Below are positions 50,777-64,000 of a stretch of DNA of 64,000 bases, one piece after another. A program made the translations under genes and the position numbers. The first letter of the stretch is position 1, and each line of letters opens with the position of its first letter. The notes beneath the pieces were generated by a model. That model searched no databases, was not told the DNA's origin, and saw only the letters and a list, made by a program, of their open reading frames with translations. Source of the DNA: Cyanobacteria bacterium P01_A01_bin.123 (GTDB lineage: Bacteria; Cyanobacteriota; Cyanobacteriia; Phormidesmidales; Phormidesmidaceae); contig JBCBZT010000033.1 of NCBI GenBank assembly GCA_039815185.1, positions 27,838-91,837 on the forward strand, in the 5' to 3' direction.

Positions 50777-53700
50777 CTATTCACACGTCCGACTTAACAC
50801 AATTCGACCATCGGCCACAGTATAGGCCCCATCTGGTTCTACGATGGGGTCGCCGATTTGCCAGGTGGGAGGCTGAGCCGTCTCAGTCGGGATTGTCTGC
50901 ACTGTCGTGGCTGGAAAGTTAGAGGCCGCAGCATCGTCAGGGCGCAGGGGCAAGCCGTCTGTGCCCGTCACGACAAATGCACCTTCGGTAGTGTTACTAC
51001 GAGCAATGCAGCTTGTGGAGATTAGGTCTTCAGGATTGATAAACCCGTCTTCGAGAGTATCTAATCCTTGGCTAGGGTCGGCGATAAGTGAATTCAGATT
51101 GACAGTGCCTGAACGTCCAAACTGAGAATCAGCGCTCAAATCGCTGGAGCTATTTGCTCTCAACTGAGCAGTCGATAAACCATTTTGTTCGGTGAGGCCA
51201 TAGATACCAATAGCATCAATATCAATTCGCCCACCATCGCCACTGACTGCATTAACAATAATGTCGCTATTTTCATTGGGGATGGTGATGACAAAATTGG
51301 TGTCAATGTCAATGTTGCCACCTCCAGCACTGAACGCAGCATCTGACACGATGGCGCTATTATTACGCAAGATCAAGCCACCCACGTTTTGAACAAAAAT
51401 GTTGCCTGCTGCGCCACCAGTACCTAATGTGTTGGTGCGCAGTGTAGAGTTGTTTAGAGTAACTAGGCGTGTATTAGCAATCGTAATATTACCGCCATCG
51501 GCACTGCCATTGGCATCACTGACAATCTCAACATTGTCCAGGGTTAATTCGCCTGGACTACTGAGAAATGCATTACCCGATTGCCCAAGTCCTGTTAAGT
51601 CAATATCAATAGTTCTATTCGGATCCAAGAAATTGTTTGGATCGGGGTCAGGAATAGTGATTTGACCACTAGCAATCAAACGAGTATTTTCAACAACTAA
51701 GCTATCGTCTCCATAAATTTGTACTGAGCCAGAGGGACCTCCCTCTGAAAGGGTAAATATGTCTAGTCCCGAAATTATGTCTCTAGCACGTAGAACAACG
51801 TTTCCACCTGCACCTGATTCTCCTAGACTGACGGCGAACAAGCGAGACGTAGTATTTTGGATAATCGGGGCATTTAAGGATATATCACCAGCTACACCAG
51901 CATTTCCCAGAGCAGATATAGAAGATGAATTTAGATCCGAACTTATAAGAGATATATTACCAGCATCGGAATTAAAAGATATGTCACCACCTGCACCAGA
52001 ATCAATGGGATCAAAACGTGCAGAAGATGTTGAATCGAAATCCGAGCCTACGAAATTTAAAGCGCCTCTATTCGTAGAAAAAAGTATATCACCGGCTGCT
52101 CGTGCATCTACAGATCCACGACTTGACGAGTTAGATCGAAAACTAGCAAGGAAAGTATTAACATTACCCTCATTAGTAGAAAATGAAATATCGCCACCTG
52201 CCCATTCATTAACAAAGTTAATCGAAAAAGAACCTGTATCTGGATCTGTCCTTGAATCGACACCAGAGGAAAAAGAAGAGTTTCTAATAGAAATATCCCC
52301 TGAATTGGTCACAAATGAGATACTTCCTGGGTTAGGGGCAACTCGAGAGATGCCAAAAAAATTAGTTGAGATATTTCCAGTATTTGTGCTTAAAAATACA
52401 CTTCCCGAACCAATCCTTATATCACTTTCAAATCTTACTGTTCTAGAAGAGGATGTGGATATAGTGTACGGGAGAGGTGAGTAAGTGATATCTCCTGACT
52501 GAGAGCTCATGAAAATGTCTCCCCCTACAGCCCCAAGTTGATGATCCCCTTCAGTAATTAATTCTTGGATTCCAACAATAACATCCCCACGCCCATGAAC
52601 TCGGATATCTCCACCGTTGCCATTGATAGAAGGAACAGTACTAATGACAGAATATACATCCGTCATTCCATTAATGGAAATCGTTCCCGATGATGTGTTT
52701 GGCATAAATTGGTTAGTCAGCAACACTAACCCTGATGCTTGAGTAATCCTGATATCTCCATTGACTGTGATATCTGCACCGCCCGAGTTAGAAGTTGTCG
52801 TTAGCTGAGCAGGTGGTGTCAACAACGGGTTATTTACAAGGCTAGGAGAAGGTAACAAAACAGTGTTGATATGCGAGGATGTCCCACTCGTATTCGGCAC
52901 CAACCCACCCAGGCTGCTCCAGTCTATACCAGCCCGCACATCTAAGGTTGCTTGGCTGCTGCCATCAATAATAATCGGCACACTTATGGGTTCTACAGTA
53001 CGGACAGTACCATCGGCGTTGTAGGTAGCTCTATACTCCGTCAGTTCAAAACTTGCTAAATCTGATATGGGATTTACACTGTTGTATCGGGTGTTATTGC
53101 TAGGGTTTATAGTGGTTTCAACTGGGCCCGTGCTGTTAATTGTGATACTACCCAAGGTCACACTTCCCCCCGCCAGGATGTGCAACGATGCACCCGTGTA
53201 GTTACTAAAACTCACGTCTCCACCCGCCAAGATGATGGGATCTGTTGGGCTCAGCATGGCTTGCAGATCTCCACTGAGTTGTTCAATCCTCCAATTACCA
53301 TTGGCATAGAAATGCGCATCTCCAATAATCGATGCATCTGATCGCAGCACCAAATCCCTGCCTGAAAACAAGCCGCTTTCTGGATGGTTTAACGCAAAAA
53401 TATCCACCAATTGGTTGCCCTGAACGGTCAGGTTGCCGCCTGCCTCGGCCACAAATGCCTCTGTGGCCGTATCCCGCACGGTCACGGTATCCGTTGCCAA
53501 CAGGGTCAAATCTTGCCCTGCGAGCAACTGCCCTTGCAGTTGCAAATTCTGTGCCGCTAACGCTAAGTTTCCACCAGTTACTAGCCGTGCCTCACTGGTG
53601 ATGTCGCCCGATGAACCCGTCAAATAATTTTCAAACATCGCATCAGGCCGTACAGTCAGCAAACTACTGTTCTGGGACTCCACCGCACTAAACACCCCAT

Positions 53701-58798: not shown

Positions 58799-59844
58799 CA
58801 GGAGTTACGCAGTTGAGATGAAGATGAGTTAGAAGAGGAGAATGAATCCTCCGAAATACCAAGCGATCGACTACATCAACTTTCTGATTGCCAGTCAGCG
58901 AGCCTACAGTTGCTGTGAAGCCGAACGGGTTCACCCGGCGAGCGACAAGCCCCTAGCGCATGATGCCATCAACCGATTGCTACACCGTCATGAGCCGAGT
59001 TCAGAAGCGTTATGGCAGGAAGCAGCAGGCTATGTAGGGCTAACTCAAGGCATTTTGGTCATTGATGACACGGTGCTGGACAAACTCTACGCTCAGCGCA
59101 TGGACCTGGTCACTCGTCAGTGGTCGGGCAAGCATAAGCGCGTGGTCAAAGGCATCAACCTCACGACGTTGCTGTGGAGCGATGGGGATAAACACATCCC
59201 CTGCGACTATCGACTGTATGAGAAGGCCATGGATGGAGCGACCAAGAACGACCATTTCTGGGCCATGCTGACGACGGGCTCAGGAGCGGGGCTTTCGACC
59301 GGAGTGCGTGGCCTTTGATAGTTGGTTCAGTGGGCTCGCCAATTTTAAGCTGATCGCCCGCTATGGCTGGCGCTGGTTGACGCGACTAAAGTGCAATCGG
59401 CTAGTGAATCCTGAGCGCAGCGGCAATCAAGCCATCAGCGAGATTGATATCGGGGCTCAAGGTCGAATTGTGCATCTCAAAGGCTACGGCATGATCCGAG
59501 TGTTCAAGATCGTTGCCCTAGACGGCGACATTGATTACTGGGCCACCAATGACCTGGAGATGAGTGAATGGCAGCGCCTCAAGTGGGCTGACTTTGAGTG
59601 GTCGATTGAGGAGTACCATCGCGGTCTGAAACAGTGTTGCGGGGTCGAAAAAGCCCAGGTGCGCTCCTCACGGGCACAGCGTAATCACATTGGCTTTGCC
59701 ATTCGAGCCTTTCTGCGCCTGGAGATGCATTGGTTCAACTCCGGCATCAGTTGGTATGAGGCCAAACTCAGCATCGTTCGCAACGCTGTGCGCTCTTATT
59801 TGGCCGCTCCTACGATTGCTCTGTTGCCAACTGCGTAAGTCCTG
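58799..59844 (+). mobile_element. IS701-family insertion sequence (1046 bp)
   Basis: 17-bp IRs CAGGAGTTACGCAGTTG / CAACTGCGTAAGTCCTG (1 mismatch). Confidence 0.9.
58842..59838 (+). pseudogene. IS701 transposase, frameshifted
   Basis: DDE motifs VIDDT, FDSWF, IEEYHRGLKQ are split between two frames; removing one G at 59276-59278 restores MLTTAQERGFRPECVAFDSW. Confidence 0.85.
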
Positions 59845-60996: not shown

Positions 60997-61524
60997 ATGC
61001 GAATACAACTAAGCAACCCAGAACCCTCAATATTCCGCCATTGGGTAGTGGTGTTTTCTAAAAACTATCTGCCCCTCACACGGATTTCGCTCAAGCGGGC
61101 GATCGCACTGCTGGTAACCGACCGGGCCGAATCACTGGAGTTGGGTGCGACTCAGTGCTGGGAAGTGCTATCGCCCAATCGGATACTACAGGTTTCAGAA
61201 CACATTCGCCTGACGGGTAACCACGGCGAACGGCAATGGAAAGTGCCCCCTGTCAGCCGCCGCGAAGTGTTTCGACGCGACCAGCACCAGTGTCAATACT
61301 GCGGCAGCAAAAAGCGACTCACGATTGACCACGTCATCCCCCGCTCCAAAGGGGGTACTCATACCTGGGACAACGTCGTGACGGCTTGCGATCGCTGCAA
61401 TTCATCAAAAGGCGATCGCTTGCTCCCGATGCGCAATTTAATGCTTATGGCCAAACCCAAGGCCCCGATGCATCCCGTCATGGCCTTTGCTGAGCAGTTT
61501 TGGATCGAACATCCCCCTGGCTAA
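60997..61524 (+). CDS. HNH endonuclease (type found next to cyanobacterial tRNA arrays)
   Basis: RREVFRRDQHQCQYCG...TIDHVIPRSKGG...WDNVVTACDRCNSSKG. Confidence 0.93.
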   Translation: MRIQLSNPEPSIFRHWVVVFSKNYLPLTRISLKRAIALLVTDRAESLELGATQCWEVLSPNRILQVSEHIRLTGNHGERQWKVPPVSRREVFRRDQHQCQYCGSKKRLTIDHVIPRSKGGTHTWDNVVTACDRCNSSKGDRLLPMRNLMLMAKPKAPMHPVMAFAEQFWIEHPPG

Positions 61525-62024: not shown

Positions 62025-62060
62025 TTGACAATTGTAGTATATATAATACAATTGTAGTAT
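62025..62060 (+). promoter_or_regulatory. tRNA-array promoter with two ACAATTGTAGTAT direct repeats (TrcR-like operator)
   Basis: TTGACA (62025)-16nt-TACAAT; repeats at 62028-62040 and 62048-62060. Confidence 0.8.
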
Positions 62061-62114: not shown

Positions 62115-62132
62115 GTGAATACTGCCACCTTT

Positions 62133-62208
62133 GGGGATGTAGCTTAGTCCGGCTCAAAGCAGTCGCCTGTCCAGCGAAAGATCGTGGGTTCAAATCCCAT
62201 CATCCCCG
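62133..62208 (+). tRNA. trnD: tRNA-Asp(GTC)
   Basis: GGGGATG/CATCCCC acceptor, loop CTGTCCA, G73. Confidence 0.85.
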
Positions 62209-62211
62209 TAT

Positions 62212-62404
62212 AGCGGTGTAGCTCAGGAGGTAGAGCGCCAGCAAACGTTGACTCGCTGGAGGATAGCCCCCCAGGTACCATCAGAACACGTAAGGGGCAG
62301 CCGGAACGCCGAATTTGCAGTGCACCTGACGTTGCAGTGATGACGTTGGGGAAGCGCGTTTTAAGGCACCGGATTACTCACGGGTTCAAGTCCCGTCACC
62401 GCTA
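62212..62404 (+). ncRNA. 193-nt tRNA-like RNA with a very large structured insertion
   Basis: AGCGGTG/CACCGCT acceptor, canonical D arm TAGCTCAGGAGGTAGAGC, T arm ACGGGTTCAAGTCCCGT; ~140 nt of hairpins between them. Confidence 0.75.
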
Positions 62405-62409
62405 TTGAT

Positions 62410-62486
62410 AGCCTCGTGGACGAGCAGATAAGTCGCTGTGATTCTCAGTCATAGAGAAGCGGGTGCAACTCCCGTCGGGGTTTCCA
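62410..62486 (+). tRNA. trnE: tRNA-Glu(CTC), atypical
   Basis: AGCCTCG/CGGGGTT acceptor, loop TTCTCAG, T-loop TGCAACT, encoded CCA. Confidence 0.7.
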
Positions 62487-62490
62487 CATT

Positions 62491-62564
62491 GAGGATGTAG
62501 CTCAGATGGAAAGAGCGCCTGTTTCCGAGGCAGGAAGCCACAGGTTCAAATCCTGTCATCCTCG
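62491..62564 (+). tRNA. trnR: tRNA-Arg(CCG)
   Basis: GAGGATG/CATCCTC, CCTGT-TTCCGAG-GCAGG. Confidence 0.78.
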
Positions 62565-62569
62565 TTCGT

Positions 62570-62652
62570 GGGGACGCAACTGGAGTTGACTGCTCCGAAA
62601 CCCACAAATGGACGGTTGCAGGACTGGGGTTCAATCCTCCACGTCTCCACCA
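62570..62652 (+). ncRNA. Mini-tmRNA-like RNA: tRNA-like domain only
   Basis: GGGGACG/CGTCTCC-A-CCA with G3.U70, stemless D-loop CAACTGGAGTTGAC, short P2-like hairpin, GGAC junction, T arm TGGGG-TTCAATC-CTCCA. Confidence 0.75.
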
Positions 62653-62655
62653 AAT

Positions 62656-62756
62656 CTCCAGGTAGCCAAGGGGAAAGGCGTCGGTCTGCAAAACCGACCA
62701 TCGTGGGTACTCTGCGAGAAGCCGCTTCGCGTCTACAATTCCCACCCTGGAGTCCA
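62656..62756 (+). tRNA. trnC: tRNA-Cys(GCA) interrupted in the T-loop by a ~27-nt small repeat (probable pseudogene)
   Basis: CTCCAGG/CCTGGAG-T-CCA, TCGGT-CTGCAAA-ACCGA; insertion ACTCTGCGAGAAGCCGCTTCGCGTCTA at ~62709-62735. Confidence 0.8.
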
Positions 62757-62757
62757 C

Positions 62758-62832
62758 TGCAGCGTAGCTTAACGGCAGAGCCGCGGCCTCATAAGCCGAC
62801 AGATGTGGGTTCAATTCCCACCGCTGCGACCA
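62758..62832 (+). tRNA. trnM: tRNA-Met(CAT) (Met/fMet/Ile2 not resolved)
   Basis: TGCAGCG/CGCTGCG-A-CCA, loop CTCATAA. Confidence 0.82.
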
Positions 62833-62835
62833 CCT

Positions 62836-62907
62836 GCACAGATGGTGTAACGGTTAGCACAAGGGCCTCCAAAGTCTTTTGTCCGGGTTCGAATCCTGGT
62901 CTGTGCG
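62836..62907 (+). tRNA. trnW: tRNA-Trp(CCA)
   Basis: GCACAGA/TCTGTGC-G, loop CTCCAAA. Confidence 0.85.
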
Positions 62908-62936
62908 TTTCTACGTCCGCGTCGTAGAAATTTCCT

Positions 62937-63013
62937 GGTGCCGTAGGCAAATCGGTAAAGCCGTCGATCTTTCAAGTCGATGTTTGCGGGTTCAACTCCC
63001 GTCGGCACTGCCA
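62937..63013 (+). tRNA. trnE: tRNA-Glu(TTC)
   Basis: GGTGCCG/CGGCACT-G-CCA, TCGAT-CTTTCAA-GTCGA. Confidence 0.85.
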
Positions 63014-63016
63014 ATT

Positions 63017-63099
63017 GGGTAGGTATGCAAATGGCTGAAGCAGGCTGCTTGTAAACCAGTCGTCCCTGACCACTGGGGGTTCGAGTCCCTCCCTACCCA
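63017..63099 (+). tRNA. trnY: tRNA-Tyr(GTA)
   Basis: GGGTAGG/CCTACCC-A, loop TTGTAAA, long variable arm; one C-C mismatch in the anticodon stem. Confidence 0.82.
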
Positions 63100-63113
63100 C
63101 TTGATCAAGTCTT

Positions 63114-63194
63114 GGAGAGTAAACCGATCAGGCGATTGGCGCTGTTTGCTAAACAGATGGATGAACAATTGTGGTTCGAGTCCACTGCTCTCCG
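63114..63194 (+). tRNA. trnS: tRNA-Ser(GCT), 8/4 fold with 6-bp D stem
   Basis: GGAGAGTA/TGCTCTCC-G, CCGATC/GATTGG D stem, loop TTGCTAA, GTGG/CCAC T stem. Confidence 0.8.
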
Positions 63195-63200
63195 CCTGAT

Positions 63201-63277
63201 GAGAACGTGGTGTAACTGGAAAACATCTCGGTCTACGAAACCGAAGATTGAAGGTTCAAGCCCTTCCGTTCTCGCCA
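63201..63277 (+). tRNA. trnR: tRNA-Arg(ACG)
   Basis: GAGAACG/CGTTCTC-G-CCA, TCGGT-CTACGAA-ACCGA. Confidence 0.88.
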
Positions 63278-63282
63278 TTGAT

Positions 63283-63368
63283 GGAGGATACCGCTGAATG
63301 GTCGGCAACTGGTCTTGAAAACCAGGGTAGTTCTTGGGCTAGGGGTTCGATTCCTCTATCCTCCGCCA
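63283..63368 (+). tRNA. trnS: tRNA-Ser(TGA)
   Basis: GGAGGAT/ATCCTCC-G-CCA, CTGGT-CTTGAAA-ACCAG, variable arm. Confidence 0.85.
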
Positions 63369-63371
63369 AAT

Positions 63372-63468
63372 GGGAAGTTGGTGAAGCTGGTGCTCACGTG
63401 CCTTTGTTGGCGCTGCCTGTCCGAAGGACATAGCAGGTGAGAAGACGGTTCGATTCCGTCACTTCCCA
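63372..63468 (+). pseudogene. Pseudo-tRNA with a small repeat inserted in the anticodon loop (possibly Phe-derived)
   Basis: GGGAAGT/ACTTCCC-A, intact D and T arms; anticodon region contains TTGGCGCTGCCTGTCCGAAGGACA. Confidence 0.72.
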
Positions 63469-63473
63469 TACGT

Positions 63474-63548
63474 TGCCCCATAGCTCAATGGTGGAGCTGG
63501 CGGCTGTTAACCGCACGGTTGTAGGTTCGAATCCTACTGGGGCAGCCA
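63474..63548 (+). tRNA. trnN: tRNA-Asn(GTT)
   Basis: TGCCCCA/TGGGGCA-G-CCA, loop CTGTTAA. Confidence 0.88.
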
Positions 63549-63553
63549 TTCAT

Positions 63554-63630
63554 TGCCGAGTGGACAACCTGGAAAGTCGCTGTGACTCTGAATCACGGAG
63601 ATGCTGGTTCAATTCCAGCCTCGGCATCCA
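63554..63630 (+). tRNA. trnQ: tRNA-Gln(CTG)
   Basis: TGCCGAG/CTCGGCA-T-CCA, loop CTCTGAA. Confidence 0.85.
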
Positions 63631-63637
63631 TCTTTAT

Positions 63638-63711
63638 TGGGAAGTACGCAAATCGGGAAAGCGACCTGACTTTGAATCAGGTGTTTGAGGGTTCGATTCC
63701 TTCCTTCCCAG
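63638..63711 (+). tRNA. trnQ: tRNA-Gln(TTG)
   Basis: TGGGAAG/CTTCCCA-G, CCTGA-CTTTGAA-TCAGG. Confidence 0.87.
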
Positions 63712-63763
63712 TCGGGGGCGTGGGTGTTGCTTATTGGAGCAATCGCCCTATCCTCCTGTTCAT

Positions 63764-63841
63764 ACTCCTGTAGCCCAACTGGCAGAGGCGACTATTTCAA
63801 ACACAGTTCACGTGTGGGTTCAACTCCCACCAGGAGTACCA
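63764..63841 (+). tRNA. trnL: tRNA-Leu(CAA), short variable arm
   Basis: ACTCCTG/CAGGAGT-A-CCA, loop TTCAAAC. Confidence 0.78.
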
Positions 63842-63846
63842 AGCAA

Positions 63847-63921
63847 ACTCCTGTAGCCCAACTGGCAGAGGCGGCTGTCTTAGAAACAGTCCATGTGTGG
63901 GTTCGACTCCCACCAGGAGTA
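63847..63921 (+). tRNA. trnL: tRNA-Leu(TAG), short variable arm
   Basis: ACTCCTG/CAGGAGT-A, GCTGT-CTTAGAA-ACAGT. Confidence 0.82.
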
Positions 63922-63926
63922 CTTAT

Positions 63927-63999
63927 CGGGATGTAAGTCAGTGGTCAGACGGCTTGTTTTGGGGACAAGCAGCCGTAGGTTCGAATCCTACCATCCCGA
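63927..63999 (+). tRNA. trnP: tRNA-Pro(TGG)
   Basis: CGGGATG/CATCCCG-A, CTTGT-TTTGGGG-ACAAG. Confidence 0.88.
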
Positions 64000-64000
64000 C

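Follow-up and report, generated by a model that had tools for sequence, protein, structure and literature searches.

Trans-translation is usually drawn as the work of one RNA with two jobs, that of a tRNA and that of a message. In canonical transfer-messenger RNA (tmRNA; gene ssrA, Rfam family RF00023) the first job is done by a tRNA-like domain (TLD), which has an acceptor stem with the pair G3:U70, discriminator base A73 and terminal CCA, a deformed D arm, the GAC...GGAC junctions and a T arm, while pseudoknots, a resume codon and a tag frame make up the rest of the molecule. The G-U at the third pair, conserved in all tmRNAs, is the determinant for alanyl-tRNA synthetase (AlaRS), and SmpB makes its contact at the deformed D arm (PMC3985003). 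Paired with SmpB, the TLD mimics a whole tRNA: it reaches the empty A site together with EF-Tu, and the nascent chain is passed on to it there (PMC3929946). Here we analyze a gene of 83 nt (positions 62570–62652, plus strand) in a stretch of 64,000 nt from contig JBCBZT010000033.1 of Cyanobacteria bacterium P01_A01_bin.123, which is called the window in what follows. The gene shares all these elements of the TLD with canonical tmRNA, but lacks the pseudoknots, the resume codon and the tag frame, thus retaining the tRNA job alone.

Tag-less RNAs of this kind are known, although barely studied. Hudson, Lau and Williams (2014; PMC4131195) entered a sequence as "Mycobacterium phage DS6A (TLD only)," and in E. 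coli the endogenous tmRNA is reportedly inhibited by a TLD-only RNA resembling that of DS6A (Mao et al., 2009, as cited in PMC4131195 and PMC11915505); the inhibition is described as strong whether or not the RNA can be charged, perhaps through titration of SmpB (PMC4131195). The 2025 tmRNA database includes tmRNAs without a coding sequence (CDS) from mitochondria, two plastids and DS6A, with nine sequences under "Standard, no CDS" (PMC11915505). Those from organelles (jakobid and other mitochondria, and two Mallomonadaceae plastids) keep the tRNA-like part along with SmpB and are thought still to help with incomplete mRNAs; they replace the full tmRNA and are mostly permuted (PMC11915505), whereas the cyanobacterial mini form is an extra gene beside a full tmRNA. 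Synthetic TLD fragments, such as the T. thermophilus TLD with a UUCG loop (PDB 2CZJ), also have the tmRNA ends joined by a small loop; they bind SmpB, mimic a whole tRNA and, with SmpB, allow polyalanine to be made in vitro without a template (Shimizu and Ueda, 2006, as cited in PMC3929946). These are laboratory constructs, whereas the cyanobacterial gene is natural and conserved, and has a longer hairpin with a conserved loop of 15 nt.

The closest counterpart is the locus of phage DS6A (JN698994.1, 28478–28560), which is unannotated. It also spans 83 nt, aligns end-to-end with RF00023 (34.7 bits) and reaches 47.9 bits with R1, the covariance model that we built for the cyanobacterial family (see below). 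The window gene is of the DS6A type, with around 80 nt, both TLD halves in standard order, a short hairpin and no coding part, and the two share the acceptor stem, the stemless D region, CGAC, the short hairpin (in DS6A its loop begins with CGAAAACC) and the T arm; the DS6A gene ends in ACUA. The loop sequence AAACCNACAAAYGGA is, however, specific to the cyanobacterial family. Likewise, the DS6A gene is phage-borne and lies between protein genes, whereas the cyanobacterial gene is borne by the host or by a plasmid and lies in a tRNA array with TrcR-type promoter boxes, with a full tmRNA in the same genome. The tRNA arrays of mycobacteria and mycobacteriophages resemble this setting in holding rescue genes (tmRNA, Pth, RF-1) and HNH endonucleases (Morgado and Vicente, 2018; PMC5966550), but they belong to a different phylum and their tmRNA is of full length; the consulted parts of that paper, as of other tRNA-array surveys, make no mention of a tag-less form.

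No report of a cyanobacterial TLD-only family was found in the literature on mini-tmRNA, TLD-only tmRNA, the trn operon and tRNA arrays. The consulted parts of PMC11915505 name no cyanobacterial CDS-less tmRNA, and one of its nine "Standard, no CDS" sequences could be cyanobacterial; the two papers on the Anabaena trn operon (PMC8421152, PMC10272220) make no mention of tmRNA, ssrA or SmpB. The original prediction, which called this an undescribed RNA, thus does not hold for the TLD-only kind, in print for DS6A, mitochondria and two plastids, while the cyanobacterial family and its setting appear to be unreported.

Anatomy of the Mini-tmRNA Gene

The 83-nt gene is divided as follows:

62570–62652, plus strand: whole gene, a TLD-only (tag-less) tmRNA of 83 nt including the encoded CCA (RF00023, 43.8 and 35.2 bits; R1, 91.4 bits)
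62570–62576, plus strand: 5′ strand of the acceptor stem, GGGGACG, with G3 at 62572; pairs with 62642–62648
62577–62590, plus strand: stemless D region, CAACTGGAGTT and then GAC (62588–62590), with GG at 62582–62583; aligned to the tmRNA consensus cuGGaUUCGAC
62591–62620, plus strand: closing hairpin, TGCTCCG, the 15-nt loop AAACCCACAAATGGA (62598–62612) and CGGTTGCA; replaces the pseudoknot and tag region
62621–62624, plus strand: GGAC junction 5′ of the T arm; aligned to the tmRNA consensus GGAC
62625–62641, plus strand: T arm, TGGGG, loop TTCAATC, CTCCA; helix 3 of the covariation analysis
62642–62652, plus strand: 3′ strand of the acceptor stem, CGTCTCC (U70 equivalent at 62646), discriminator A at 62649 and CCA at 62650–62652

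The acceptor stem has 7 bp and includes G3:U70, G3 lying opposite the T at 62646, whereas from a reading of the sequence both a D stem and an anticodon arm are absent. The tmRNA model RF00023 aligned its positions 1–374 over exactly 62570–62652, with 314 central positions reduced to 22 nt; the score was 43.8 bits (E 1.2e-15) when 1.9 kb were searched and 35.2 bits (E 2.7e-13) with a stretch of 103 nt. In both searches the overlapping matches of the clan that includes the tRNA model (RF00005), given without the names of their families, scored below RF00023. The match is not due to chance, as shown by the score of the window copy with R1 (91.4 bits) and by the covarying helices described below.

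Between the two TLD halves there is a sole hairpin of 30 nt in place of pseudoknots PK1–PK4, and the gene has neither a resume codon nor a tag frame ending in a stop. In the window copy no stop codon occurs in any frame from the start of the hairpin to the discriminator base; likewise, stops are absent from 39 of 47 distinct relatives, and the other eight have a single, non-conserved one. ARAGORN, which called 16 tRNAs in the window, called neither a tRNA nor a tmRNA at 62570–62652. Identity as a tRNA-Ala (RF00005) was rejected, the cloverleaf with a D stem and an NGC anticodon being absent, and so was a permuted two-piece tmRNA (RF04321), whose match fell short of the gathering score of 47 with its 25.4 bits and covered the 3′ half alone, while the halves of the gene stand in standard order. 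The mitochondrial tmRNA model (RF02544) gave no match to the gene at E values up to 10. Single-sequence folding was uninformative (z = −1.05, T arm missed), and RNAalifold, applied unguided to a plain MAFFT alignment, recovered the hairpin, the T arm and part of the acceptor stem. Every anatomical detail of the original prediction (G3.U70, A73, CCA, stemless D-loop, hairpin, GGAC and T arm) was therefore borne out, and so was its view of the gene as a stand-alone tmRNA TLD without a message. With the comparative evidence given next, we conclude that the window gene is a real, selected, tag-less mini-tmRNA, in which the TLD of tmRNA is closed by a short hairpin.

A Covarying Family of Mini-tmRNAs in Cyanobacteria

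BLAST searches with the 83 nt against 100 related genomes found homologs in seven, covering two of the 27 other families represented in that sample, and in an even sample of the phylum the gene was present in 2 of 150 other genomes (one of the 29 other families in that sample). When 185,579 species genomes were scanned for a pattern of 19 letters from the hairpin loop, 115 loci were retrieved. The alignment A1 and the covariance model R1 were built from 39 distinct intact sequences (63 copies passing an acceptor-stem filter), any copy having a T-loop insert, a truncation or a mis-picked stem being excluded. R1 found 96 matches of at least 51 bits in 98 sources, 86 of them among the 115 pattern loci; all 96 are cyanobacterial where the record was named, and they cover many cyanobacterial genera. 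The window copy scored 91.4 bits with R1, against only 27.1 bits for a true tRNA-Ala of the array. One further pattern locus (L101) is a remnant truncated at its 5′ end, with 28.9 bits.

Several other candidates were discarded. The 28 pattern loci whose record titles are not cyanobacterial are chance matches, with at most 24.4 bits with R1 and around 35 expected from the information content of the pattern. Two weak hits of R1, in genomes G145 (36.4 bits) and G200 (34.2 bits), fall on the TLD portions of full but permuted tmRNA genes from other cyanobacteria. A phage origin of the family was also unsupported: a BLAST comparison against 50,697 phage records gave two irrelevant matches of 26 nt, and of the seven viral contigs in which the loop pattern occurs, none carries the gene or scores beyond the seeded 21 nt.

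Covariation was counted on the 75 best R1 matches (E up to 1e-21), which comprise 47 distinct sequences, leaving out 21 weaker rows that are mostly copies with inserts or truncations. Among the 47 sequences, 94.5% of the cells were paired, compared to 84.8% in shuffles and 36–55% when the partners were slid, and the observed covariation score was reached by none of 500 shuffles. Both sides changed in 11 of the 20 base pairs, including four of the eight pairs of helix 2 (the hairpin) and three of the five pairs of helix 3 (the T arm, with 98.3% of cells paired), and compensatory changes were seen in all three helices. Variation was unevenly distributed along the acceptor stem: G1:C72, G3:U70 and the discriminator A73 were invariant in all 47 sequences, as was the GG of the D region, whereas acceptor pairs 4–7 covaried, with two to five pair types each. 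In the GGAC junction, the second G was kept in 44 and the A in 45 of the 47. Invariant identity elements beside drifting pairs 4–7 are the pattern expected from selection for recognition by AlaRS, and would point to selection for charging rather than for mere shape; this pattern also argues that the gene is neither a decaying tRNA-Ala nor a mere spacer. Both the absence of decay and the existence of conserved homologs in other arrays, on which the original prediction had made itself depend, are thus supported, the former also by the lack of an ARAGORN call and the ranking of the tmRNA model within its clan.

The 15-nt loop (AAACCNACAAAYGGA) is near-invariant and the most conserved part of the family, although this is partly built in because the family was collected largely with a pattern from the same loop. 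Its start, CGAAAC, aligns with the unpaired cGA..a that follows helix 2a in the tmRNA consensus, where DS6A has CGAAAACC, which would make the loop a possible relic of tmRNA helix 2. Within the loop, a CC is paired with a GG by RNAalifold. No partner in trans stood out: the 8.09-Mb genome contains 17 sites with up to two mismatches to the complement of the loop, against around 15 expected, and one of them is the opposite strand of the gene itself.

The mini gene escapes ARAGORN and mostly falls just below the Rfam threshold for tmRNA, such that pipelines built on Rfam will label some members as an additional "tmRNA" and pass over most of the rest. One relative, at G042:C35:21742–21824, scores 52.2 bits with RF00023, above the gathering score.

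Genomic Forms of the Family and the trn Operon of Anabaena

With short sequence motifs, 95 copies could be roughly sorted into three genomic forms. The array type, with 40 copies including that of the window, lies inside long tRNA arrays. A tRNA-Arg(CCG) gene is found 2–4 nt upstream in 21 of the 40, and tRNA-Glu(CUC) is the last tRNA called upstream in 16; on the 3′ side there is tRNA-Cys(GCA) in 26, while tRNA-Met is the next called gene in nine, the window included. CCA is encoded in 38 of these copies, and an exact TGTAGTAT occurs in the fetched upstream flank of 30, the flanks of the other ten being short. The mini gene thus holds a fixed slot within long tRNA arrays. The Nostoc-array type (11 copies) lies between tRNA-Glu(UUC) and tRNA-Tyr and does not encode CCA. 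The operon-head type (44 copies, mostly from Nostoc) is the first gene behind a TGTAGTAT-box promoter, within 200 nt of it in 37 of the 44, and in 42 there is no tRNA gene upstream.

Around 40 small Nostoc operons (L062:1474–1870, L040, L055, L059, L109) consist of a TGTAGTAT-box promoter, the mini-tmRNA and a composite of approximately 250 nt. The outer part of the composite is itself tRNA-like (GGGTCTG and a D arm, then a T arm and CAGATCC-A), again with G3:U70, and it encloses a good tRNA (56.9 bits; L062:1678–1749) whose anticodon varies between species. The next tRNA called by ARAGORN 3′ of the operon-head loci reads CUA (amber) in 19 of 44, and CUU, AGU, UCU, UUU, UGA or GAA in others.

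A copy of the family, with 97.8 bits in R1, resides in the trn operon of Nostoc/Anabaena PCC 7120, on plasmid pCC7120delta (L133:1882–1962, corresponding to NC_003273.1, complement 51739..51819), and fills most of the 123-nt gap between the tRNA-Glu(UUC) and tRNA-Tyr genes called by ARAGORN. This operon is normally silent and is induced by translation inhibitors or impaired translation (PMC8421152), and TGTAGTAT is the site protected by TrcR in its promoter (PMC10272220). PCC 7120 already offers mutants, conditions for induction, acid-gel aminoacylation assays and the repressor TrcR, making the function of the mini gene directly testable.

Setting in the Window and Partner Genes in the Genome

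The following features surround the mini gene in the window:

60997–61524, plus strand: HNH endonuclease gene upstream of the array (Pfam HNH, E 2.3e-17)
62025–62060, plus strand: array promoter, TTGACA, 16 nt and TACAAT (62025–62052), with TGTAGTAT boxes at 62033–62040 and 62053–62060 (11 of 12 matches in a promoter scan)
62132–64000, plus strand: tRNA array holding the mini gene, with 16 tRNAs called by ARAGORN plus uncalled tRNA-like genes; cut by the end of the contig
62490–62565, plus strand: tRNA-Arg(CCG), upstream neighbor, 4 nt 5′ of the mini gene (ARAGORN)
62656–62756, plus strand: tRNA-Cys(GCA), downstream neighbor, 3 nt 3′ of the CCA, with a 28-nt insert in its T loop (by comparison with intact L011 and L026)

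From 62132 to the end of the contig all tRNAs of the array are on the plus strand, separated by spacers of a few nt. Tightly spaced tRNAs on the same strand behind a TGTAGTAT promoter make this an array of the L-array or trn operon type, for which control by TrcR is predicted. The mini gene had been placed in a translation-stress operon, and the array does bear two promoter boxes of the TrcR/trn regulon, with binding of TrcR predicted. Additionally, an HNH endonuclease gene also lies upstream of the trn operon of PCC 7120, in synteny with the window, and the HNH endonuclease all8564 appears in the table of the TrcR regulon (PMC10272220).

The mini gene is single-copy in the genome of the window, which also contains one full-length tmRNA (120.2 bits), one SmpB gene and an RqcH-type NFACT gene. 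A full tmRNA and one SmpB gene were likewise found in all five other carriers tested, showing that the mini form is an addition to the full tmRNA and not its replacement. A search of sequencing runs for the window turned up no RNA run, the sole entry being a sediment run with a share of 0.05, probably of DNA.

Proposed Mechanism and Alternative Explanations

Alanylation, binding of SmpB and EF-Tu, and entry into stalled ribosomes are the functions predicted for the window gene from its structure. The mini-tmRNA would be co-transcribed with the array from the TrcR-type promoter upon derepression, once translation is impaired, and would be excised like the neighboring tRNAs, from which spacers of 4 nt (5′ side) and 3 nt (3′ side) separate it. 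AlaRS would charge it with alanine by virtue of G3:U70 and A73, SmpB would bind at the deformed D region and the GAC/GGAC junction, and EF-Tu would bring it to ribosomes that have stalled on broken mRNAs with their A site empty. There the RNA would accept the nascent chain, but offer neither a resume codon nor a stop codon, so that tagging could not be completed. Consequently, it would be a competitor of the full tmRNA, and the chains that it yields, either untagged or extended with alanine, would depend on a different release route, namely drop-off or hydrolysis. Rescue could be diverted from proteolysis tagging by this competition, by the addition of one alanine or by repeated rounds adding several. 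We are inclined, with considerable reserve, to consider it probable that an alanine-charged, SmpB-dependent RNA enters stalled ribosomes in this way, without a tag template, and diverts rescue from proteolysis tagging. A broader proposal, which we advance as tentative and rather doubtful, is that many cyanobacteria possess a second rescue mode switched by stress, in which derepression of the TrcR regulon would flood the cell with mini-tmRNA and, with SmpB, tag-less release or template-free alanine tailing would replace tagging, the hairpin loop being a dedicated contact with SmpB or the ribosome beyond those of the full tmRNA.

Several observations sit uneasily with a role in rescue. The RF00023 score of the gene (43.8 bits) is below the Rfam gathering score of 47, and expression, charging and binding in the window organism are predictions. 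The rescue model does not explain the strong conservation of the 15-nt loop. The GAC junction, kept in the window copy, is not universal (G in 32 and A in 25 of the 47 distinct sequences, with many array copies reading CAC), so the junction that would bind SmpB may differ among family members. The family is sporadic (2 of 150 genomes in the phylum sample and 7 of 100 relatives by BLAST), which is as expected for cargo of mobile arrays. Lastly, 21 of the 95 copies carry an insert of 24 nt or similar in the T loop, which should wreck the elbow unless it is removed and suggests that the gene is often dispensable.

Some of these observations could be accommodated by a different use of the same RNA. 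It might act as a sponge away from the ribosome, binding SmpB and possibly AlaRS or EF-Tu as well and simply lowering trans-translation under global translation stress, with charging and ribosome entry being irrelevant. The single SmpB gene in each of the six carriers tested and the report on DS6A, in which tmRNA was inhibited by a TLD-only RNA whether chargeable or not (PMC4131195), are in agreement with this; a sponge, however, needs no G3:U70, A73 or CCA, and yet the first two are invariant in 47 of 47 sequences while neighboring pairs compensate, and CCA is encoded in 38 of 40 copies of the array type, so we consider it unlikely. We find it slightly more unlikely still that the RNA works away from ribosome rescue altogether, as a donor of alanine for a transferase, as processing punctuation in the polycistronic precursor or as a decoy for nucleases of tRNA and tmRNA. 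The mainstay for such a role is the near-invariant loop, which points to a partner absent from the rescue model; moreover, the authors of the work on the trn operon leave non-canonical roles of operonic tRNAs open (PMC8421152), and tRNA arrays have been discussed as anti-defense devices (PMC12803027). Conversely, what is kept is specifically the build of a tmRNA (no D stem, GAC/GGAC and a tmRNA model scoring above the overlapping matches of its clan), AlaRS identity would be superfluous for punctuation or a decoy, the neighbors are tRNAs and an HNH endonuclease with no candidate transferase gene adjoining, and the genome search for complements of the loop brought out no evident partner RNA.

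We regard as highly improbable that the gene is a functionless, decaying remnant of a tRNA-Ala, or of a tmRNA gene with an internal deletion. A remnant could account for the lack of an ARAGORN call, the Rfam score below the gathering score and the T-loop inserts or 5′ truncations of many relatives, and pseudogenes do occur in L-arrays (3 of 26 genes in Anabaena; PMC8421152). It is at odds, nevertheless, with 96 copies of at least 51 bits in many cyanobacterial genera, reaching 2 of 27 and 1 of 29 other families in the two samples, with compensatory changes in all three helices around invariant identity elements, and with the fixed slot kept in the arrays.

If the proposed diversion of rescue is true, cells would tune the fate of unfinished proteins under stress between tagging and mere release; under the broader proposal of a second rescue mode, there would be a natural equivalent to the polyalanine reaction, which has been observed in vitro alone until now. 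Irrespective of its mode of action, the TLD-only tmRNA described here is notable for being encoded by the host, for its conservation, for its link to a defined stress regulon and for its occurrence in a tractable model organism.

Other Features of the Array

ARAGORN misses the tRNA-Cys(GCA) gene at 62656–62756 because its T loop is interrupted by a hairpin-forming insert of 28 nt (GTGGGT, ACTCTGCGAGAAGCCGCTTCGCGTCTAC, AATTCCCAC, whereas intact relatives read GTGGGTTCGATTCCCAC). The site is the same as that of the 24-nt insert (ACCCTNCGGGAAGGCAAAGCCTAC) found in 21 of the 95 mini-tmRNA copies, in other genomes, with an insert of 45 nt in L137, and units similar to the T-loop insert occur elsewhere in the window genome (contigs C15, C43 and C101). 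The insert may be a tiny mobile element favoring T loops, or an insert at the RNA level.

Two other tRNA-like genes of the array, both on the plus strand, were left uncalled by ARAGORN. That at 62212–62409, between tRNA-Asp and tRNA-Glu(CUC), has an acceptor stem (AGCGGTG / CACCGCT) and normal D and T arms, with approximately 125 nt replacing the anticodon arm, and was not called by any Rfam family either. That at 63372–63467 has an acceptor stem (GGGAAGT / ACTTCCC) and a long extra arm, and tRNA-Sec (RF01852) was all that it matched, weakly, at 25.4 bits where the gathering score is 47. Farther upstream than the HNH endonuclease gene, a fragment of a DDE transposase (58842–59318, plus strand) suggests a mobile setting for the array.

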